Shown here one piece after another: positions 4,822 to 42,301 of a DNA stretch of 64,000 bases. Within the stretch, counting starts at the first letter, position 1, and every line of letters starts with the position of its first letter. This stretch comes from Alphaproteobacteria bacterium (GTDB lineage: Bacteria > Pseudomonadota > Alphaproteobacteria > UBA7985 > JAUIBT01). The position numbers and the translations under genes are program-made. The notes beneath the pieces were generated by a model. That model searched no databases. It worked only from the letters and a program-made list of their open reading frames with translations, and was not told the origin of the DNA. Location of the stretch: contig JAUIBT010000018.1 in assembly GCA_030428255.1 (NCBI GenBank), positions 18,378 through 82,377 on the forward strand, read 5' to 3'.

Positions 4822-6072
4822 TCAGCTTGCCTCAGCCAGGGCTTTGAACGCGCACTCCAGGTCGGCTTTTAGATCTTCTAGCGCTTCCAGGCCGATATGG
4901 AAACGCAGCATGGGGCCAGATAGCTCAAGGCTGGGCGGCCAGGGTGTGGCGCTGCGCGACTGCTCGGGGTATTGTGGGACGACCAGCGATTCAAAGCCGC
5001 CCCAGGAATAGCCCATAGAGAACAGCGTTAAGGTCTCGACGAAGGCGGCGACCTGCTCACGGCTGGTGCCGGGCTGCAGCAAGACGCTGAACAGGCCCGA
5101 ACACCCTTCAAAAAGTTGATTGAAGATCTCGTGTTGTGGGTGCGACGGCAGGCCAGGATGCAGGACTGCGGCGACTTCGGGGCGCTGCTCGAACCATGAC
5201 GCCATGTCGAGCCCGGCTTGGTGGTGGTGGCGTAGGCGAACGTCCATGGTTCGTAGGCCGCGAAGCGCCAAGGCCGCTTCGTCTGGGGCAATGCGGTGAC
5301 CAATCAGATAGGCTTGCTTACGTAAGGCAAGCAGCGTGTCTCCCTTGGCCGCGACGACGCCTAACATAGCGTCTGAATGTCCAACGATATACTTGGTGCC
5401 CGCTTGAACAGAAACGTCGACGCCGTGATCTAGAGGTTTGAAAAACAGTGGGGTTGCCCAGGTGTTGTCGATTGCACTGACAACGCCAGCCTCGCGCGCA
5501 ACCTTGGCCAAGGCCACAACGTCTTGGACCTCAAAGGTCAAAGATCCAGGCGCTTCCATATAGAGAAGCTTGGTGTTGGGACGTATGATCGCCGCCAGCT
5601 CCTGTGGGCCAATCAAAGGGTCGTAGTAACTAGTCTCGACACCAAAGCGGGCCAGGTACTCGTCGCAGAAGGTGCGGACCGGTCCATACACGCTGTCGGT
5701 CATCAAGATGTGGTCACCCGTATTGACGAATGCGGTCAGGGTAATCGTCGCGGCCGCTAGACCCGATTCAAGGCAGACGGCTCCATCTGCATGATCCAGC
5801 TTGCCCAGCATGTCCTCAAAGGCCCAAACACTATCGCTGCCCGAACGTCCATAACCGCTTCTACCTTGAGCTCTCAGCGCAGGGTAGGTCCGCGCGAGTG
5901 TGTCAAGGCTGTCAAATGTAAGGGTCGACGCCCGGTAGATCGGCGGATTGATGGTACCAAGGCCTGTATTGGGCATAATGGTGCCCCGCGCTTCGTGCGC
6001 CAAAAGGGTGGCATCGTTGTTGGAGTTGGGCAAATGCTTGGGCGAATCCGAAGGCATAGTTGGCTTGGACAT
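4822..6072 (-). CDS. metC: cystathionine beta-lyase
   Basis: INPPIYRAST, YGRSG, DNTWATP, PLP lysine motif QAGTKYIVGHSD, FSMGYSWGGFESL, RFHIGLE. Confidence 0.9.
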   Translation of the reverse strand: MSKPTMPSDSPKHLPNSNNDATLLAHEARGTIMPNTGLGTINPPIYRASTLTFDSLDTLARTYPALRAQGRSGYGRSGSDSVWAFEDMLGKLDHADGAVCLESGLAAATITLTAFVNTGDHILMTDSVYGPVRTFCDEYLARFGVETSYYDPLIGPQELAAIIRPNTKLLYMEAPGSLTFEVQDVVALAKVAREAGVVSAIDNTWATPLFFKPLDHGVDVSVQAGTKYIVGHSDAMLGVVAAKGDTLLALRKQAYLIGHRIAPDEAALALRGLRTMDVRLRHHHQAGLDMASWFEQRPEVAAVLHPGLPSHPQHEIFNQLFEGCSGLFSVLLQPGTSREQVAAFVETLTLFSMGYSWGGFESLVVPQYPEQSRSATPWPPSLELSGPMLRFHIGLEALEDLKADLECAFKALAEAS

Positions 6073-8953: not shown

Positions 8954-10924
8954 ATGGCGAATCAGGATCTCAACACCGAAAACACGGGCGCAAACTTCAA
9001 GCCAACTCCCGCGCGCGATGCGCCGTTGAATGAGATTGGCTGGGTCGCAACGATCAAGCGCAACTTGTTTGCGGGGCCAATTTCCTGGGTGGCAACACCG
9101 GTATTGGCGTTCATCATTGTCTCCGTACTCACCCATGTGCTGTCCTGGGGCTTCTTGAAAGCAACCAACCACGGCGCCTCAAACCGAACCTGTCACCTGG
9201 CCGAGCGGACAAGCTTGCTGGCGAAAGGTGATATTGCAAACTTGGTGGCTGGTAAGCTGCTGTTATCAAAGAGCTATCAGAGCCAGGACGAGCGCTTGTT
9301 CTGGGTCGACCGGCAAACGCATTGGAGCCGGTTTGCGGCGTCCACCCTTGGTTTCGGGGCCAGTTATGATGAGTTGATGACCGCCGATATATTGGCGGAT
9401 CGCGACGTCTCGCGTGCCCTGTCCCAGCGTGCTGACATTCTCAGCACTATTCAAAAGGACATCGACTTCATTGAGCGCAACGCGGACCCAGAAGCAGTTG
9501 TCCATCCTGGCCTGGCCAAAGCGGTCGAGGGGCTTGATCTCTTGGCAGGCGCTGCGGCACTGAAGGCGGCGGTTGCTGCAATGGATCCGGCGGCCTTCGA
9601 AGCTGCGCGCTCCAAATTCGACGCTATGATCCATTGGGGCGAGGCCCACAATGGTGCGTGCTGGACCGTGGTAAAGCGGCGCTGGCAGCAGTTCCTTTAT
9701 GGCTTCTATCCTGCGGATCAGGTCTGGCGGGTTGCTGTGACCGGTCTACTGTTGCTGATGGGTGGCTTGTCCTTGCTGTGGCCAGGACGCAGCCAGACCA
9801 GCCGCAGCGTAACCGCTGGCGCTGTAGCACTAGGCATGGGCTTTGCCATCCAATCCGGCGCGGCGCTGAGCGGTTTTGGATTGGTGCTCGCCTACATCAT
9901 ACCGCTCATTTTGGCTCTGCTGTACGAAAACCTGTCAACCGGCAGGCGGGGACTAATCTTCTTCTTGGGATTCCCCTTCGCCGCCACTTGGCTGCTGATC
10001 CGCTTCTCACTTCCGCAAGCCATTACCTTAGTATCGTCCCCGGCAGAGTGGATATTGGGTTTGCTTGTCTTGGCGATTTGGGGATTGGTCTTCTGGCAGA
10101 GCCTGAAGACGCAGTCAGCGTCTAAGACCTTCAAGCCTTTGACCAACGCGATCTATCTGATCTTGGGGGCCTTGACCTTCTATATCTTCTTGACCGTACG
10201 GGTCGAACCGTCGGGCGATGAGCTGTCGGCTCTACAAAATTTGTTGGGCTCTTTGCGCCTCAGCGACGTGGAGGTGGATAATATCTGGGGTGGCTTGCTG
10301 GCGACCGCCGTCACTGGTCTGACCGGCATCGCGGTGTCCTTGCCGCTGGGCGTCGTACTGGCGCTGGGCCGTCGGTCGGACTTGCCGATCGTTTCAACCT
10401 TCTCTACCGGCTTTATCGAGTTTGTGCGCGGTGTGCCCTTGATCACCATTCTGTTTATGGCGTCTGTGCTGTTGCCCCTGTTCTTGCCCGAAGGCGTGAC
10501 TATCAACAAGTTGCTGCGTGCTCTCGTGGGCGTGTCGCTGTTTGCATCAGCTTATATGGCGGAGGTCATTCGCGGCGGTTTGCAAGGCCTAAGCAAGGGC
10601 CAAACCGAAGGCGCAGACTCTTTGGGCCTCAGCTTCTGGCAAACCCAACGCTTCATCATCTTGCCTCAGGCGTTGAAAATCTCAATTCCTGGCATCGTGA
10701 ACACCTTTATTGGCCTGTATAAGGATACCACCCTGCTGTCGATCATCGGGATTTTTGACCTGCTGGGCGTCGGTTCGCGGTCGGTCTTGCCGTCGCTTGA
10801 ATGGGCGCGGCTTGAGGCTGAGGTTTACGCCTTTATCGCCTTGTTCTTCTTCCTATCATGTTTCTTCATGTCCCGTTACTCCCAGCACCTAGAGCGGCGC
10901 TTGGCGACCGGCCACGACCATTAA
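8954..10924 (+). CDS. aapM: general L-amino acid ABC transporter permease (AapM/BztC) with a large N-terminal insertion
   Basis: GACW...QFLYGFYP, WGGLLAT, LALGRRS, IEFVRGVPLITILF, AYMAEVIRGGLQ, FIGLYKDT. AGGAG before ATG 8954. Confidence 0.9.
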   Translation: MANQDLNTENTGANFKPTPARDAPLNEIGWVATIKRNLFAGPISWVATPVLAFIIVSVLTHVLSWGFLKATNHGASNRTCHLAERTSLLAKGDIANLVAGKLLLSKSYQSQDERLFWVDRQTHWSRFAASTLGFGASYDELMTADILADRDVSRALSQRADILSTIQKDIDFIERNADPEAVVHPGLAKAVEGLDLLAGAAALKAAVAAMDPAAFEAARSKFDAMIHWGEAHNGACWTVVKRRWQQFLYGFYPADQVWRVAVTGLLLLMGGLSLLWPGRSQTSRSVTAGAVALGMGFAIQSGAALSGFGLVLAYIIPLILALLYENLSTGRRGLIFFLGFPFAATWLLIRFSLPQAITLVSSPAEWILGLLVLAIWGLVFWQSLKTQSASKTFKPLTNAIYLILGALTFYIFLTVRVEPSGDELSALQNLLGSLRLSDVEVDNIWGGLLATAVTGLTGIAVSLPLGVVLALGRRSDLPIVSTFSTGFIEFVRGVPLITILFMASVLLPLFLPEGVTINKLLRALVGVSLFASAYMAEVIRGGLQGLSKGQTEGADSLGLSFWQTQRFIILPQALKISIPGIVNTFIGLYKDTTLLSIIGIFDLLGVGSRSVLPSLEWARLEAEVYAFIALFFFLSCFFMSRYSQHLERRLATGHDH

Positions 10925-18053: not shown

Positions 18054-18689
18054 ATGACCGCTAAACCGCTCATCGCCGTCATCGGGGCCGGCGGCCATGC
18101 AAAGGTCGTGATTGACGTGTTGCGCGCCCAGGGCTGGCAGGTCGGGGTAGCCTTGGTCACCGGAACAGACACGCAGCCGGTTGCCGCTTGCAATGGAGTA
18201 CCGGTGGACGTGGCAGACTGCGCACTACCCTGGCTAATCTCGAACGGCTTTCACGCCGCTTTTGTTGCAATCGGCGATAACGCGGCGCGCGCGCAAATCA
18301 GCCAAGAGCTGGGCGAGGGCGGCATAGACTTGCCGGGCGCAATTGATCCCCACGCTGTGGTATCACCGTCCGCCGCTGTTGCCGCGGGCGCGCTGATCAT
18401 GCCCGGCGCGGTGGTCAACGCCGAGGCACGGATCGGGCGCGGGGTCATAATCAACACCGGCGCTTGTATCGATCACGACTGCGACATCGGCGATTATGCC
18501 CACATCGCGCCCGCCTCAGCCTTGGCGGGGAGTGTTAGGGTCGGGCAGCTCAGTCTTTGCGGCGTCGGCTCGCGAATCATTCCCGGCGTGCAGTTGGGTG
18601 AGCGCGTCATTGTGGGGGCCGGAGCCGTGGTCACGCGCGATTTGCACGATGGGGTGCGAGTGGTCGGGGTGCCAGCACGCCGCCTCTAA
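18054..18689 (+). CDS. NeuD/PglD-like sugar acetyltransferase (hexapeptide repeat)
   Basis: GAGGHAKVV, VAIGDN..R, IINTGACIDHDC.IGDYAHIAP, GAGAVV, VGVPAR. Confidence 0.9.
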   Translation: MTAKPLIAVIGAGGHAKVVIDVLRAQGWQVGVALVTGTDTQPVAACNGVPVDVADCALPWLISNGFHAAFVAIGDNAARAQISQELGEGGIDLPGAIDPHAVVSPSAAVAAGALIMPGAVVNAEARIGRGVIINTGACIDHDCDIGDYAHIAPASALAGSVRVGQLSLCGVGSRIIPGVQLGERVIVGAGAVVTRDLHDGVRVVGVPARRL

Positions 18690-18716
18690 GGCAAGGGTGT
18701 GAGTTTTGCTTGCATA

Positions 18717-18736
18717 AATTAACCTTGGTGTTAATT
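18717..18736. promoter_or_regulatory. inverted repeat / operator candidate 7 bp upstream of the ArsR-cysD start
   Basis: AATTAAC-cttggt-GTTAATT in an AT-rich patch, flanked by TGCAT/ATGCA. Confidence 0.55.
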
Positions 18737-18743
18737 AAAATGC

Positions 18744-19907
18744 ATGAGAAATGAAGCTGACATCCACGCTGTGCTGGCCGATCCGATCCGCCGGCGCGTC
18801 CTTGAAGACCTCGCGCGCAATCCTGGCCTAACCGCAAGCGACCTTGGCGAGCCCTTTGAGATCTCCAAACCCGCGTTGAGCCGCCACCTTAAGATACTTG
18901 AGGAGTCCGGGCTTGTTGAGCGCGAGATTGACCGGCAGTTCCGCCGATTTCGCTTGAGCGCCCGGGCTGAGACCCTCGACTGGTTGGCTGATTTGCGCAT
19001 GCAAGCTCTGGCCCCGCTGAGCCACTTGGATCAGCTTGAGGCCGAGTCCATCCACACCATGCGAGAAGTCGTGGCCGAGATGAGCAATCCGGTCATGATG
19101 TACTCAATTGGTAAAGATTCCAGTGTGATGCTGCACCTGGCGCTCAAGGCTTTCTATCCTTCAAAGCTGCCGTTTCCTCTGCTGCACATCGATACAACCT
19201 GGAAATTTCGCGAAATGATCGCATTTCGCGACCAGGTGGCTGAACGCTATGACCTCGATCTGCGCATCTTCACCAGCCCAGACGGTAAGGCCGAGGGCAT
19301 CAACCCCTTCGACCACGGCGCGCACTACACCGACGTGATGAAAACCGCAGCGTTGAAACAGGCGTTGGACCATTATGGCTTTGACGTGGCTTTCGGTGGG
19401 GCGCGACGAGATGAGGAGAAATCGCGCGCCAAGGAACGGGTCTTGTCCTTTCGCTCTAAGGGCCACGTTTGGAATCCCAAGGGGCAACGGCCGGAAATTT
19501 GGAACGTGTTTAACACTCGTGTTAATAAAAACGAAACAATTCGCGCGTTTCCCTTGTCAAATTGGACCGAGCTCGACATCTGGCAGTACATTGTGCGGGA
19601 AAATATCCCGATTGTGCCTTTGTACTTTGCTGCGCGGCGCCCGGTCGTCGAGCGCGATGGCGCGCTGATCATGGTTGATGACGAACGATTGCCCTTGGAG
19701 GCTGGCGAAACGCCTGAACAGCGCTGGGTCCGTTTCCGCACGCTCGGCTGCTATCCGCTGACGGGTGCCATCGAAAGCCAGGCAGATACATTGGAAGGGA
19801 TCGTGCGAGAAATGCAGGTCGCGCGCACTTCTGAGCGCCAAGGCCGCCTGATTGACCAAGATCAGAGCGCCTCCATGGAGAAAAAGAAGTTGGAGGGCTA
19901 TTTCTAA
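18744..19907 (+). CDS. cysD: fusion protein: ArsR/SmtB-family winged HTH + sulfate adenylyltransferase subunit 2 (CysD)
   Basis: Residues ~1-85: [41 protein letters not shown]. Then, in frame with no stop: [63 protein letters not shown]. Confidence 0.92.
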
Positions 19908-21802
19908 TGAGCCAGAGACAACCCGCTGCAGCGGCCAGCGATGCCCCCTTGTTTGTCGATGCACCAAATGGCCTACTGCGCTTTATCACCTGCGGCTCGG
20001 TCGATGATGGCAAATCGACCCTAATCGGCCGATTGCTCTACGATTCCAAGCTGTTGCTAGACGACCAAGTGTCAGCGCTTGAGCTTGCCTCCAAGCGCTT
20101 CGGGACGACCGGCGAGGGCAATCTGGACTTCGCCTTGCTGGTCGACGGCCTTCAAGCCGAGGTCGAGCAGGGTATCACCATCGACGTGGCCTACCGCTTC
20201 TTCGCCACCGACAAGCGCAAGTTCATCGTCGCTGATACGCCAGGGCACGAGCAATACACCCGCAACATGGTCACGGGTGCCTCGACGGCGGATCTTGCAG
20301 TGTTGCTGGTTGATGCGCGCCAGGGCGTTGTGACCCAGACCCGCCGCCACGCCTATATCGCTGCGCTGCTCGGCGTGCGGACCGTGGTCATGGCGGTCAA
20401 TAAGATGGATCTGGTAGACTATGACGAGGATGTGTTCCGACAGATTCGAGCCGATTTTGCCGGCCTGGCAAGCCTGCTCAACCTGGCCCAGACCCATGCC
20501 ATTCCAGTTTCGGCCTTGAAGGGAGATAACATTTCTTCTCAGGCACCAACCATGCCCTGGTACACGGGGCCAAGTCTGCTGGAGTTCCTTGAAACCGCGC
20601 CGCAAACCCAGTCAGATTTTACCCGTCAGCCATTCCGCTTCCCGGTGCAGTGGGTCAATCGTCCGCATCTGGATTTTCGCGGCTACTCGGGCTGCGTGGC
20701 CTCGGGCCAAATCGCCGTCGGCGATGCCATTCTTGCCTTGCCGTCTGCCAAAAGCTCGACCGTCAAGCGCATTGTCAGCTTTGACGGCGACATGCAGCGC
20801 GCGCGTGCCGGTCAGGCTGTGACGCTGGTGTTGGATGACGAGCTCGACATTTCACGCGGGGATTTGTTGTGCGCGCCCAAGGACCGTGCCGAGGTCTCGG
20901 ATCAGTTCATGGCCACTCTGGTTTGGATGGATGAAAAGCCTTTGCTTCCGGGACGATCCTATTTGATGAAGTTGGCGACCAAGACCTTGCCAACCACAGT
21001 CAGCAGCATCAAGCATGCAATCAACATTAACAGTTTTGAGAAAACGGCGGCGAAGACCTTAACATTGAACGAAATTGCCGAGGTCAACCTAAGCCTAGAG
21101 ACCGAGATCGCTTTCGACGCCTACGAGGAGAACCACCAAACGGGCGGCTTCATTTTGATCGACCGTATGACCAACGCCACCGTCGCTGCGGGCATGTTGA
21201 GCTTTGCCTTGCGGCGTGCGCAGAACCTGCACCGCCAAGCGCTGAATATTTCCAAGCCTCAGCGAGCGGAGCAAAAGGGTCAGAAGCCTCGAGTGCTGTG
21301 GTTCACCGGGCTGTCTGGGTCCGGCAAATCTACCGTTGCCAACTTAGTTGAACAAAAACTGTTCGCCGAAGGTCACCACTGTATGATCTTGGACGGCGAT
21401 AATGTTCGTCACGGCCTAAATCGCGATTTGGGTTTTACCGACGCCGACAGGGTGGAAAACATCCGCCGCATCGCTGAAGTGGCTAAGCTGATGGTCGAGG
21501 CGGGCCTTATCGTTCTTGTCTCCTTCATCTCTCCCTTCCGTTCGGAGCGGCGCATGGCGCGTGATTTGATGGAGGAAGGAGAATTCGTTGAGGTGTTTGT
21601 CGATACGCCGCTGGAGGTCTGCGAGCAGCGCGACGTTAAGGGGCTCTATGCCAAGGCCCGTGCGGGTGAGATCAAGAACTTCACCGGTATCGATTCGCCC
21701 TATGAGGCACCGCAGGACGCTGAGCTGCACTTAAAGTCAGCGGAGGCGTCGGCCGATGCGCTGGCAGACAAGGTTTTGGCCTATTTGGCCGCCCAGACCT
21801 AG
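19907..21802 (+). CDS. cysNC: bifunctional sulfate adenylyltransferase subunit 1 / adenylylsulfate kinase (CysNC/NodQ type)
   Basis: [65 protein letters not shown] overlap with cysD. Confidence 0.95.
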
Positions 21803-31692: not shown

Positions 31693-32412
31693 GTGGACAC
31701 AACCCTTATCATCATTGCTTTGGGCAGCTTTTTCGCGGCGCTGGTCAACGCCGCTTTGGCCACGGGCGGTATCTATATCTTGCTGTTGACCAGCATGTCC
31801 GTGGTGCCGGTCACGTCGGCCATTGCTCTGCAGACGGTGTTTTCCGCCGGCTCCTTGCTCGCTCGTATTGTTTTGTTTTGGCGGCACGTTCGCTGGCGTA
31901 TTGTCGGCTTTTTCATGCTGGGCGCGCTGCCGGGGGTCGGCTTGGGGGCCTGGGGCTTTGTCAGCCTGCCTGAGCGCAGCCTGACGCTGATCTTGGGCTG
32001 TGTGATCCTGGTCCTGATTTGGCTTCCTAAATCTAGGCAGCCGCTGCAGTCGCGTCGCGCCTTTGTTGGCATCGGTACTACACACGCTTTTCTTGGCACC
32101 ATGCTGGGGATCGGGGGCGTGTTGCAGGCCATGATCTTGCGCACCGACCTCAATCGCATGGCAATCACTGGCACGTTGGCCTGTTCCATGCTGCTGCTGG
32201 ATGTCTTGAAGACCAGCTCCTACATCGGGCTTGGCTTTTCCTACACGAATTTTTGGCCACATATCCTAGCTGCGAGCCTGTCGGGCATTGCAGGAGTCTA
32301 TGTTGGCAAGCGGATTTCGCATGCCCTGCCTGAACGGGTGTTCCGCTTGGCCTTTCGCTTGTTGGTCTCCTTTGCAGCCCTGCGTTTGGTCTATTTGGGC
32401 CTGACCAGCTAG
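31693..32412 (+). CDS. TauE/SafE (TSUP) family sulfite/organosulfur exporter
   Basis: Two-fold repeated hydrophobic architecture with Gly-rich helices (ALATGG; TMLGIGG), ~8 TM segments. Confidence 0.75.
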   Translation: MDTTLIIIALGSFFAALVNAALATGGIYILLLTSMSVVPVTSAIALQTVFSAGSLLARIVLFWRHVRWRIVGFFMLGALPGVGLGAWGFVSLPERSLTLILGCVILVLIWLPKSRQPLQSRRAFVGIGTTHAFLGTMLGIGGVLQAMILRTDLNRMAITGTLACSMLLLDVLKTSSYIGLGFSYTNFWPHILAASLSGIAGVYVGKRISHALPERVFRLAFRLLVSFAALRLVYLGLTS

Positions 32413-41464: not shown

Positions 41465-42301
41465 TTAACCCTTGGCGTATGGTGGTTTGGTCAAACCAAG
41501 CGGCGAGTGGGTGAAAATCTCATATCCCGTTTCCGTGACGGCCAAAGAGTGCTCGAACTGTGCGGAAGGCTTACCGTCGGTCGTGCGGGCCGTCCAACCG
41601 TCTTTAGGATCGGTCCATGTGTCCTTAACGCCGATGTTGATCATCGGCTCGATGGTAAAAAACATCCCGGGTTGCAGTACCTGGCCTTCGCCGCGTCGGC
41701 CGGTATGAATAACCGATGGCGGCGCGTGAAACACCTGACCCAGGCCATGGCCGCAGAAGTCCTCGACCACCGAAAAGCCGTTGGCATGCGCGTGTTGAGC
41801 AATGGCAAAGCCGACATCGCCCAAGGTCTTGCCTGGCGCAACCTCTTCGATACCCAGCATAAGGCAATCATAGGTCACGTCGATCAACTTGCGCTTCTTT
41901 GAAGACAAGCTGGTCCAATCGCCCGCGACATACATGCGGCTGGTGTCGCCAAACCAACCGTCCAAAATGACCGTGACATCGATATTCAAAATATCGCCGC
42001 GCGCCAGCTTGGCCTTCTTGTTTGGAATGCCGTGGCACACAACCTCGTTGATCGAAATACAGCTCGACTTGGGATAGCCGCGATAGTTCAAGGTCGCGGG
42101 CACTGCGCCGTGTTCAATGATGAACGCGTGACACAGCTCGTCCAGCTTTGCCGTGGTGACCCCGGGCTCGACGAAGGGCGTGAGATAGTCCAAGACCTCG
42201 GCCGCCAATGCGCCGGCTTTGCGCATGCCCTCAAAACCTTTTTCGTCGTGGATGGGCACGGTTTCGCGTTTTCTGATCATGGTCTCGGGTCTTTTGGTCA
42301 T
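41465..42301 (-). CDS. map: type I methionine aminopeptidase
   Basis: SINEVVCHGIP, NIDVT, GDTSR, GHGLG..FH, FTIEPMIN, SAQFEH. Confidence 0.96.
   Translation of the reverse strand: MTKRPETMIRKRETVPIHDEKGFEGMRKAGALAAEVLDYLTPFVEPGVTTAKLDELCHAFIIEHGAVPATLNYRGYPKSSCISINEVVCHGIPNKKAKLARGDILNIDVTVILDGWFGDTSRMYVAGDWTSLSSKKRKLIDVTYDCLMLGIEEVAPGKTLGDVGFAIAQHAHANGFSVVEDFCGHGLGQVFHAPPSVIHTGRRGEGQVLQPGMFFTIEPMINIGVKDTWTDPKDGWTARTTDGKPSAQFEHSLAVTETGYEIFTHSPLGLTKPPYAKG

Follow-up and report, generated by a model that had tools for sequence, protein, structure and literature searches.

An ArsR-type winged helix fused to the ATP sulfurylase subunit CysD, with a candidate operator at its start codon, in uncultured alphaproteobacteria

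The fused gene and its cysNC neighbour

The window, meaning the whole 64-kb stretch of DNA that was analysed, carries a single uninterrupted ORF at 18744..19907 (+) that encodes 387 aa. The architecture is an ArsR/SmtB winged helix (residues ~1–90) in frame with an intact CysD, and both halves match curated protein families. Pfam places HTH_20 at residues 11–60 (55.1 bits, cutoff 27), HTH_5 at residues 13–59 (47.1 bits) and PAPS_reduct at residues 115–341 (189 bits). The NCBIfam ArsR/SmtB subfamily model NF033788 covers residues 5–73 with 56.9 bits (cutoff 55), while the CysD equivalog NF009214 covers residues 88–387 with 520.6 bits (cutoff 413), and TIGR02039 scores 491.9 bits (cutoff 396.6). 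The original prediction, made from the letters of the sequence, had proposed an uninterrupted 387-aa ORF with a complete winged helix and an intact CysD; with HTH_20, HTH_5, NF033788 and NF009214 all above cutoff, a PP-loop in place and a complete predicted fold, we found the same.

The winged-helix domain (residues 1–90) occupies 18744..19013 (+); its assignment draws on Pfam and NCBIfam, the AlphaFold2 fold, Foldseek and dN/dS. The AlphaFold2 model of the fused protein has a mean pLDDT of 77.9 and contains a complete winged helix, with helices at residues 4–11, 14–25, 31–35 and 42–54, a beta-wing at 58–71 and a further helix at 79–89. Foldseek matches this fold to HlyU, SrnR, SmtB and 3f6o (TMt 0.61–0.72), and the best PDB sequence match of the HTH is SrnR (7p6f). 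From alignment and the model, the junction is residues 86–93 (MQALAPLS; 18999..19022, +), linking helix alpha5 of the ArsR part to the first helix of CysD, with the helix interrupted at residues 90–93 and that CysD helix spanning residues 94–112. The junction includes an in-frame Met86. Each lineage with the fusion has an in-frame linker Met, at differing positions and without a convincing Shine-Dalgarno (SD) sequence, and from these sequences we do not favour internal initiation at Met86.

The CysD moiety (sulfate adenylyltransferase subunit 2), with its stop codon, occupies 19014..19907 (+), assigned by NF009214, and its PP-loop motif SIGKDS lies at residues 121–126. It matches PDB 1zun_A with 450 bits, and 1zun is also its top Foldseek match. 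The columns that are invariant across a 26-sequence CysD alignment are all kept in the fused protein, as they are by definition. Our best reading of these sequences is that the enzyme moiety is an ordinary, catalytically intact CysD with predicted activity. Canonical CysD/CysN ATP sulfurylase is represented by the Pseudomonas syringae enzyme (PDB 1zun); the enzyme moiety here is likewise a standard CysD, followed by a cysN fused to cysC.

Directly downstream is cysNC, a 631-aa ORF at 19907..21802 (+) assigned by NF004035 and Pfam, with a GGAGG 12 nt upstream. It encodes a GTPase subunit fused to APS kinase: NF004035, for the bifunctional CysNC, scores 1012 bits (cutoff 715), and the Pfam domains are GTP_EFTU and APS_kinase. 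The TAA stop of cysD (19905–19907) shares one base with the ATG of cysNC (TAATG), in agreement with the translational coupling that had been proposed. A cysN partner adjoins the fused cysD likewise in L083 through L087.

The winged helix had also been said to lack cysteine, and this is true of residues 1–90 in the window protein and in 3/3 homologues. Histidine occurs in the HTH of the window protein at positions 8 and 48 only. We found none of the known metal- or thiol-sensing sites in it (an alpha3N CxC, an alpha5 His/Asp/Glu cluster or a BigR/SqrR-type Cys pair). A metal- or persulfide-sensing ArsR is ruled out, as there is neither a cysteine nor an alpha5 site, so that the domain belongs to the ArsR/SmtB fold but lies outside the metal- or persulfide-sensing subgroups.

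Reality, conservation and spread of the fusion

Two separate genes could in principle appear as one because a stop codon was lost, the frame shifted or the assembly is chimeric. The original prediction had named a chimera and a lost stop as things to exclude by read mapping. Four biofloc/metagenome run records have Logan contigs spanning 18600–19400, none of which differs from the window; word depths are about 28x and 62x. Because the matching contigs have identical sizes, the four records probably stand for two data sets that were each deposited in duplicate. The same architecture is present on independently assembled contigs from other samples, and three further lineages encode a 387-aa fusion of the same layout. 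With identical junctions in independent assemblies, four diverged lineages that each have exactly 387 aa, and purifying selection across HTH and junction, we regard an artefact as next to impossible. We found no point in favour of it.

The fusion is genuine and old. Among the four fusions the HTH (residues 1–90) has pairwise identities of 42–77%. In a tree with 80 stand-alone CysDs, the CysD parts of the fusions form one clade (SH-aLRT 99), which suggests a single fusion event. Between fused lineages dN/dS is 0.10–0.19 for the HTH and 0.03–0.08 for CysD, with dS saturated, and by these ratios the HTH, like the enzyme, is under purifying selection. The recognition helix is invariant across the fused lineages.

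So far the fusion has been found in at least four clusters at 90% identity, all from uncultured alphaproteobacteria. Scanning genome contigs with the full protein gave, among the matches listed, ordinary cysD genes and no fused locus; these ordinary genes served as our control set and as tree sequences. In all 80 of the 80 stand-alone CysDs sampled, the SHLxQLEAES helix is preceded by ~5–10 residues and no DNA-binding domain is present. A profile search of a representative library with residues 1–110 gave no fused representative, the query's own clade included, presumably because clustering at 50% identity had placed that clade with a stand-alone CysD as its representative. Since it missed the query clade itself, the library search is no gauge of how widespread the fusion is. 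A junction-profile scan of metagenomes gave no additional fusion among the matches listed, and the fusion locus was not found in the RNA runs searched. Six apparent HTH-to-CysD matches (L092, L094, L096, L099, L105 and L106) were rejected as plain cysD genes or out-of-frame composites. In the literature we found no precedent for a fusion of ArsR with CysD, or of an HTH with sulfate adenylyltransferase, which fits the earlier statement that no characterised example was known.

The start region and the origin of the winged helix

Upstream of the fused gene lies a perfect inverted repeat, ATTAAC-cttggt-GTTAAT (18718..18735, +), which ends 8 nt before the ATG and which we call candidate operator O1 from comparison between lineages. 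A GCTTGC block at 18708..18713 (+), 30 nt from the ATG and invariant in the four fused lineages, is a possible −35-like element. What is new here is that the whole layout, GCTTGC-N4-RTTAAC-N6-GTTAAY-N8-ATG with fixed spacing, is conserved in 4/4 fused lineages. The outer bases of O1 vary symmetrically (A..T vs G..C) and the spacer varies freely; the symmetric change of the arms is probably one evolutionary event. RTTAAC-N6-GTTAAY has a single exact match in the 64-kb window, where 0.08 would be expected even with one mismatch allowed. It is found upstream of 7/7 fused loci and of 0/80 stand-alone cysD genes, and the exact form of the more general box wTAAC-N6-GTTAw is present in 0/77 stand-alone cysD upstream regions.

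There is no SD before the fused ATG in any lineage; cysNC, by contrast, has its GGAGG. A strict sigma-70 consensus scan gave no promoter in the 3 lineages tested, so a promoter role for GCTTGC is conjectural and the placement of the operator relative to a −10 element or the transcription start is guesswork. A terminator scan run alongside found nothing. From the conservation of GCTTGC, the fixed spacing and the missing SD, the region possibly has a −35/−10 arrangement and a leaderless start.

The HTH appears to come from a particular subgroup of ArsR proteins. Its closest free-standing ArsRs, among the matches listed, have up to 54–56% identity to it, and it aligns over their full length. Their C-terminal SFDxLD/E motif aligns with the SHLDQLE at the N-terminus of CysD, and in the profile search with residues 1–110 of the representative library free ArsRs align out to residues 97–102. 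Among the matches listed, an AHSA1/SRPBCC gene follows all nine of the nine closest free-standing ArsRs. In eight of these nine, a wTAAC-N6-GTTAw box that is either exact or off by one base lies at the ArsR start codon or overlaps it (background expectation 0.006 per 120 nt); in L090, the remaining one, there is an atypical box arrangement only. ISK vs ISQ in the recognition helix parallels TTAAC vs ATAAC in the boxes, a correlation that is probably one evolutionary event.

Two-gene ArsR–AHSA1/SRPBCC modules have been noted but are uncharacterised (PMC4531530). They share with the fused gene a cysteine-free HTH, a wTAAC-N6-GTTAw box at the start codon and a start with no SD. The difference is in the partner: there AHSA1 is translationally coupled to ArsR, whereas here CysD is covalently fused. 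By its closest relatives and its start-codon box the fused HTH belongs with the AHSA1-linked ArsR subgroup; an AHSA1/SRPBCC gene is not directly downstream, and the fused CysD takes that place. As the type of box is common to the closest free ArsRs, it seems that an ArsR gene was fused onto cysD together with its own autoregulated promoter. We believe that a cysteine-free ArsR gene, of the kind normally upstream of AHSA1/SRPBCC, would have been joined once, in frame, to the 5' end of cysD, and that promoter, palindromic operator and SD-less (possibly leaderless) start came along with it. If so, this is an example of an enzyme acquiring a regulator in a single event, HTH, cognate operator and start site together. 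The source of the HTH, with its own operator, and the rarity of the fusion both go beyond what the original prediction had offered.

The palindrome could instead be the operator of a separate, free ArsR paralogue, with the fused HTH competing for it, heterodimerising or acting on other promoters. Cross-recognition is conceivable, since this type of box is common to the whole ArsR–AHSA1 subfamily. Against this, looking through the 64-kb window and the 17-kb flanks around the related loci, we found neither an ArsR nor an AHSA1 paralogue, and in L087 the box accompanies the fused gene even though the upstream neighbour gene is a different one. The simplest account of L087 is inheritance in cis with the gene's own HTH, and we consider a paralogue's operator quite unlikely.

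It is also conceivable that the winged helix does not bind DNA at all and is a dimerisation or oligomerisation module of ATP sulfurylase, leaving the palindrome as a relic or as another regulator's site. The alpha1 and alpha5 helices of ArsR proteins are dimerisation elements, and many small-molecule O-methyltransferases have N-terminal wHTH-like domains that serve dimerisation. Foldseek aligns the whole model to O-methyltransferases with such a domain (7wdq, 3mcz, 7ux8 and 8tjk), but with very low TM-scores of 0.14–0.20. Moreover, the recognition helix is of the same type as in DNA-binding relatives, and across lineages the palindrome has been kept at a fixed distance from the ATG despite saturated synonymous divergence, as a relic would not have been. 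This reading we judge very improbable. We infer from the comparison that the conserved palindrome at the ATG, common to the closest free ArsRs, is a candidate autoregulatory operator for the fused HTH.

A possible self-regulating sulfate activation operon

The regulation of sulfate activation is generally credited to separate proteins, such as CysB-type LysR regulators and CymR–CysK complexes. In our best explanation, which we think is probably right, the fused protein would be both a working ATP-sulfurylase subunit and the repressor of its own cysD–cysNC operon. Together with co-translated CysNC, the CysD moiety would produce APS and PAPS. The winged helix at the N-terminus, which presumably dimerises, would bind the RTTAAC-N6-GTTAAY palindrome 8 nt before the ATG and repress transcription of cysD–cysNC, so that the abundance of the enzyme would feed back on its own synthesis. 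With a repressor domain of its own, CysD would form a self-contained feedback loop of minimal design on the energetically costly first step of sulfate assimilation and on PAPS synthesis. Every base of the predicted operator is specified, and natural half-site variants exist that can serve as specificity controls.

The original prediction had read the fusion as a possible trigger enzyme, in which the state of the enzyme controls DNA binding and so links sulfate activation to transcription. The part about DNA regulation has gained from the palindrome at the start codon in four lineages, the box at the free ArsRs and the purifying selection on the HTH. The other part, that as in BirA or RbkR the enzyme moiety may tune DNA binding through its state, by having ATP or APS bound or by assembling with CysNC, is plausible as a conjecture. 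Candidate ligands are few: ATP, sulfate, APS, PAPS, PPi, GTP and CysNC.

In RbkR, a wHTH is joined to a working kinase, and substrate and product modulate DNA binding (PMC5397151). Like the fused CysD, RbkR combines in one polypeptide a winged-helix DNA-binding domain and an active nucleotide-using enzyme of the regulated pathway. The RbkR regulon includes the gene for RbkR itself, and the operators were at first comparative-genomic predictions. RbkR differs in being archaeal, with a CTP-dependent kinase fold and an HTH of another family. In BirA, an N-terminal wHTH is fused to an adenylate-forming enzyme, and it is biotinyl-AMP that makes the protein dimerise and bind its operator. CysD likewise yields an adenylate, APS, which makes an analogous logic attractive, and APS as a corepressor would be pure speculation by analogy. 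There is no homology to BirA in either domain, and BirA acts alone, while CysD needs the CysN GTPase.

A simpler possibility differs from our best explanation solely by denying metabolic sensing. Here the HTH would bind the palindrome with an affinity independent of the catalytic or assembly state, giving concentration-dependent negative feedback, noise reduction and a fixed set-point. The operator and HTH evidence fits this equally well, the HTH has neither cysteine nor metal-site residues, and the junction is ~4 non-helical residues with no obvious allosteric module. On the other side, every one of the free relatives, among the matches listed, comes with an SRPBCC partner that putatively binds a ligand, which suggests that the ancestral HTH was responsive to a signal through its neighbour, and characterised HTH–enzyme fusions such as RbkR are, by analogy, ligand-modulated. 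We take such a constitutive autoregulator to be possible and somewhat unlikely. The nearest studied two-protein ArsR system is SrnR/SrnQ, in which the ArsR protein SrnR senses its signal through a partner protein (PMC7055735).

Returning to self-repression by an active enzyme, a more ambitious, 'Rosetta stone' version of it would treat the protein downstream of a cysteine-free ArsR as its sensor, with CysD covalently in that role. (CysD–CysNC)n would set the geometry of pairs of HTH dimers through its GTP- and APS-driven conformational cycle, and build-up of APS or PAPS would close the promoter, possibly by looping between O1 and a second site, O2, ~790 bp downstream. We think this version unlikely. 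If it were true, flux through sulfate activation would be linked directly to transcription with no second messenger. The fusion also offers a lead for the widespread uncharacterised ArsR–AHSA1 pairs, by suggesting that the downstream partner talks to the HTH.

SahR is an ArsR-family, SAH-responsive regulator of the SAM cycle (PMC4239095). It too has an ArsR-type HTH with an enzyme-fold C-terminal domain, and it controls sulfur-amino-acid metabolism. That C-terminal domain is reportedly a methyltransferase-like sensor and not a working pathway enzyme. In our search with the HTH region, an ArsR+methyltransferase protein (P0005) was the sole non-CysD multi-domain match, with 41% identity over 60% of the query; the fused HTH is in a different ArsR subgroup from proteins of the SahR kind.

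Like the bifunctional regulators BirA, RbkR, NadR and PutA, the fused protein has a DNA-binding domain and an intact catalytic domain in one polypeptide, with a candidate operator from comparative genomics. The ArsR–CysD fusion is thus a rare, uncharacterised enzyme–regulator hybrid of a known general kind, represented by BirA and RbkR. Its rarity, with at least four clusters in uncultured bacteria, makes it a curiosity with mechanistic value and no general principle, and lowers its general importance.

The second site, O2, is a possible auxiliary operator within cysD at 19510..19525 (+), where TTAAC-actcgt-GTTAA (codons F-N-T-R-V-N) has an exact 10-base core. At the homologous position of stand-alone cysD genes, 0/80 have an exact site and 0/80 encode the F. 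Across the fused lineages O2 is exact in L081, has one mismatch in L083 and is lost in L087, and as an auxiliary operator it is suggestive only. It is among just three sites in the window with at most one mismatch.

The fused gene and its relatives

The ArsR-CysD gene (window 18744..19907, + strand) is one uninterrupted ORF of 387 aa, and the last base of its TAA stop is also the first base of the ATG that opens cysNC (19907..21802, + strand), which encodes a bifunctional CysNC of 631 aa (NCBIfam, 1012 bits). Pfam places HTH_20 (55 bits) and HTH_5 (47 bits) at residues 11-60 of the fused protein and PAPS_reduct at residues 115-341 (189 bits). NCBIfam finds the ArsR/SmtB subfamily model NF033788 at residues 5-73 (56.9 bits, cutoff 55) and the CysD equivalog NF009214 at residues 88-387 (520.6 bits, cutoff 413). 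The AlphaFold2 model (mean pLDDT 77.9, mostly 80-90 in the winged helix) has helices at 4-11, 14-25, 31-35 and 42-54, a beta-wing at 58-71 and a helix at 79-89, and after a four-residue break comes the first CysD helix at 94-112. Foldseek matched the N-terminal part of the model to HlyU, SrnR, SmtB and further ArsR structures and the C-terminal part to CysD (1zun_A), and found no single solved structure with both ArsR-type and CysD parts. The original prediction of a complete, cysteine-free ArsR winged helix was borne out by all four of these methods and by the count of zero cysteines in residues 1-90. Its intact CysD was confirmed by NF009214 and 1zun_A, and its single ORF with TAATG coupling to cysNC by the ORF coordinates.

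The HTH has the ArsR/SmtB fold but lacks every known sensory site, and the PDB entry closest to it in sequence is SrnR (7p6f). The enzyme moiety has the PP-loop SIGKDS and keeps the residues that are invariant in a 26-sequence CysD alignment; judged by sequence, the C-terminal 300 residues are a normal, canonical CysD. An out-of-frame ATG 4 nt 5' of the true start opens a 4-codon mini-ORF (M-H-E-K-stop, window 18740-18754) over the start codon; the other lineages do not keep it, and it is probably of no significance.

A chimera or lost stop at the junction had been raised as a point to check in reads, and we found that Logan contigs of four run records cover 18600-19400 with zero differences, at word depths of about 28x and 62x. 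The records belong to two studies and include biofloc metagenomes among others; identical contig sizes suggest that they are two data sets, each filed twice. A search with residues 1-110 gave three further protein clusters with the same architecture, each exactly 387 aa long and 77, 75 and 55% identical to the window protein over those residues. Starting from the most divergent member returned the same four clusters and added none. The contigs with these relatives were assembled independently, in two NCBI MAGs and several SRA/ENA runs, and the other possible flaw, a stop or frameshift between the domains in close relatives, did not appear in the three other lineages (loci L081, L083 and L087). 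As far as our searches reach, the fusion is confined to four 90%-identity clusters from uncultured bacteria. P0157, a member of the L083-type cluster P0003, is recorded as 392 aa instead of 387, probably because its start was called further upstream on a short contig.

In comparisons between lineages, dS is saturated (1.0 to above 3) and dN/dS amounts to 0.10-0.19 in codons 1-90 and 0.03-0.08 in the CysD part, and the recognition helix of the HTH does not vary across the fused lineages. Because dN/dS is low at saturated dS and this helix is invariant, we take both halves to be translated and under selection. The same observations exclude a decaying remnant, and an assembly artefact is excluded by the Logan contigs without differences, the independent contigs and the selection on both halves. 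In a maximum-likelihood tree with 80 stand-alone CysDs, the four fused CysD moieties form one clade (SH-aLRT 99, stem 0.25), which indicates that the fusion arose in a single event.

Three of the lineages share the order dienelactone hydrolase, PglD-like acetyltransferase, fused gene, cysNC, gpsA, hydrolase-OsmC, recO, ftsB and pdhAB; the fourth, L087, differs in its upstream gene. The PglD/NeuD-like hexapeptide acetyltransferase (window 18054-18689), in the same position in 3/4 fused lineages, ends 54 nt before the fused gene, and any link to PAPS supply might perhaps be through a sulfated or acetylated sugar. In L081 (MAG GCA_964536635.1), the gene calls break cysNC (9164-10891) into fragments, with a 325-aa piece and an antisense call, and a mechanical ORF scan finds one open frame of 575 aa. 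The versions in the window (631) and L083 (638) are longer by about 56-63 aa; L081 could have a deletion, or its start or end could differ.

A candidate operator upstream

All four fused lineages have the block GCTTGC-N4-RTTAAC-N6-GTTAAY-N8-ATG (window 18708-18746, + strand), with no indels between it and the start codon. The palindrome RTTAAC-N6-GTTAAY (18718-18735, + strand), our candidate operator, ends 8 nt before the ATG. Its half-sites are perfect inverted repeats, its six-base spacer is different in each lineage, and its outer bases co-vary (ATTAAC..GTTAAT in the window and L081, GTTAAC..GTTAAC in L083 and L087). The upstream neighbour in L087 is unrelated, yet the block is retained. 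The pattern has a single exact match in the 64-kb window, where 0.08 would be expected even with one mismatch allowed. Across 87 loci, it occurs in 7/7 with the fused gene and 1/80 with a stand-alone cysD, and in that one it is 4.5 kb from cysD. Upstream of stand-alone cysD, the box wTAAC-N6-GTTAw is exact in 0/77 usable regions and within one mismatch in five.

All four fused genes lack a Shine-Dalgarno sequence before the ATG; cysNC, by contrast, has GGAGG. A strict sigma-70 consensus scan found no promoter at the fused gene, and a search of RNA runs found none with the locus. The first T of TTGC is 34 nt from the A of ATG, and from this spacing and the missing Shine-Dalgarno we infer a -35-like role for GCTTGC, a -10 overlapped by the right half-site and a leaderless mRNA.

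Free-standing ArsR genes and the origin of the HTH

By sequence, the HTH belongs to an uncharacterised AHSA1-linked ArsR subgroup, which has been noted in Frankia (PMC4531530). Free-standing ArsRs of 108-138 aa came from a metagenome scan and from a search with only the HTH as query; among the matches listed, they are up to 54-56% identical to the fused HTH. In the nine loci we examined, the closest among the matches listed, the next gene is always AHSA1/SRPBCC, starting in overlap with or closely after the ArsR stop. The fused gene lacks this partner because CysD fills that slot.

Boxes of the same kind are at the same place upstream of the free ArsR genes. L160 has TTAAC-gttggt-GTTAA 2 nt before its ATG, almost the window's TTAAC-cttggt-GTTAA, L088 has TTAAC-aattac-GTTAA 3 nt before its ATG, and L089 has TTAAC-atattt-GTTAt. 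L161, L162, L163, L164 and L165 have the symmetric variant ATAAC-N6-GTTAT, exact or with one mismatch, with the ATG within the right arm. L090 is atypical, with only abutting half-sites (GTTAATTAAC) and one-mismatch matches. Thus 8/9 have wTAAC-N6-GTTAw (exact or one mismatch) at or overlapping a start codon without a Shine-Dalgarno; as background, 1.4 Mb of loci have 0.006 TTAAC-type boxes per 120 nt when up to one mismatch is allowed. A recognition helix starting ISK goes with the TTAAC-type box (eight loci, one atypical) and ISQ with the ATAAC-type box (five loci). We count this as supportive only, since it is probably a single switch. In L163, the ArsR (1501-1917, 138 aa as called) probably starts 15 codons further in, at an internal ATGGAA (about 1546); before it stand TTGACT and an ATAAA-N6-GTTAT box that overlaps the ATG, as in its relatives.

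The free ArsRs align over their whole length with the fused protein, and the SFDxLD/E motif of their C-terminal helix falls on the conserved CysD N-terminal SHLDQLE. Neither domain was cut short, and the join falls where the two are locally similar over a short stretch. The most economical history has cysD fused to an ArsR gene from this subgroup, in the place where AHSA1 is usually found, with the autoregulated promoter, operator and start codon without a Shine-Dalgarno carried along. The ArsR-AHSA1 pairs are apparently a coherent, uncharacterised regulator family worth separate study.

Probable autorepression and other sites in the window

Our literature searches found no report of an ArsR-CysD fusion or an HTH-ATP sulfurylase, and the database name of one fused member is just 'sulfate adenylyltransferase subunit 2'. 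ArsR with CysD is a new domain combination, but bifunctional enzyme-regulators are already known; RbkR, BirA, NadR and PutA are the nearest functional analogues. For this fusion, the predicted operator is unusually well defined and the evolutionary origin is clear. Its interest is tempered by its rarity and by the hypothetical state of the trigger-enzyme mechanism.

We consider it fairly probable that the protein is an active CysD that represses its own gene through the palindrome. The CysD moiety with CysNC would make APS and PAPS, and the winged helix, presumably a dimer as ArsR proteins generally are, would on the comparative evidence most likely bind the palindrome before its own start codon and repress cysD-cysNC; we infer both the binding and the sign of regulation. 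Within autorepression, we give roughly even chances to binding gated by ligand or assembly and to constitutive binding. Plain concentration-dependent autorepression, with no effect of enzyme state, accounts for every observation. Gating is favoured by two traits of the ancestral HTH, its lack of sensory residues and its constant pairing with a putative ligand-binding partner, and by the analogues BirA, SrnR/SrnQ and RbkR. The BirA corepressor is its own adenylate intermediate, and APS is likewise an adenylate. SrnR requires its partner SrnQ for nickel sensing (PMC7055735), and in RbkR, a winged helix fused to a kinase, the substrate CTP and the product FMN act as the switch (PMC5397151).

Among 23 window ORFs scanned with Pfam (about half of the long ORFs), the only other sulfur-related genes, a Cys/Met-metabolism PLP enzyme (4822-6069, - strand) and a TauE/SafE-family putative sulfite/sulfonate exporter (31693-32409, + strand), have no operator box.

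Besides the operator, only two window sites come within one mismatch. The first, an exact TTAAC-N6-GTTAA core (19510-19525, + strand), is inside cysD over the codons F-N-T-R-V-N. The core is exact in L081, although the spacer there has synonymous changes; L083 has it with one base changed, and L087 lacks it. At the homologous position in 80 stand-alone cysD genes, neither the exact core nor Phe occurs; most encode Tyr, and the Y-to-F change makes the left half-site. This is suggestive, and the site could be an auxiliary operator of the younger subclade, or it could be a coincidence of codon choice passed on among close relatives. The second site, 41625-41640 (TTAACgccgatGTTGA), lies inside overlapping long ORFs and is probably due to chance.
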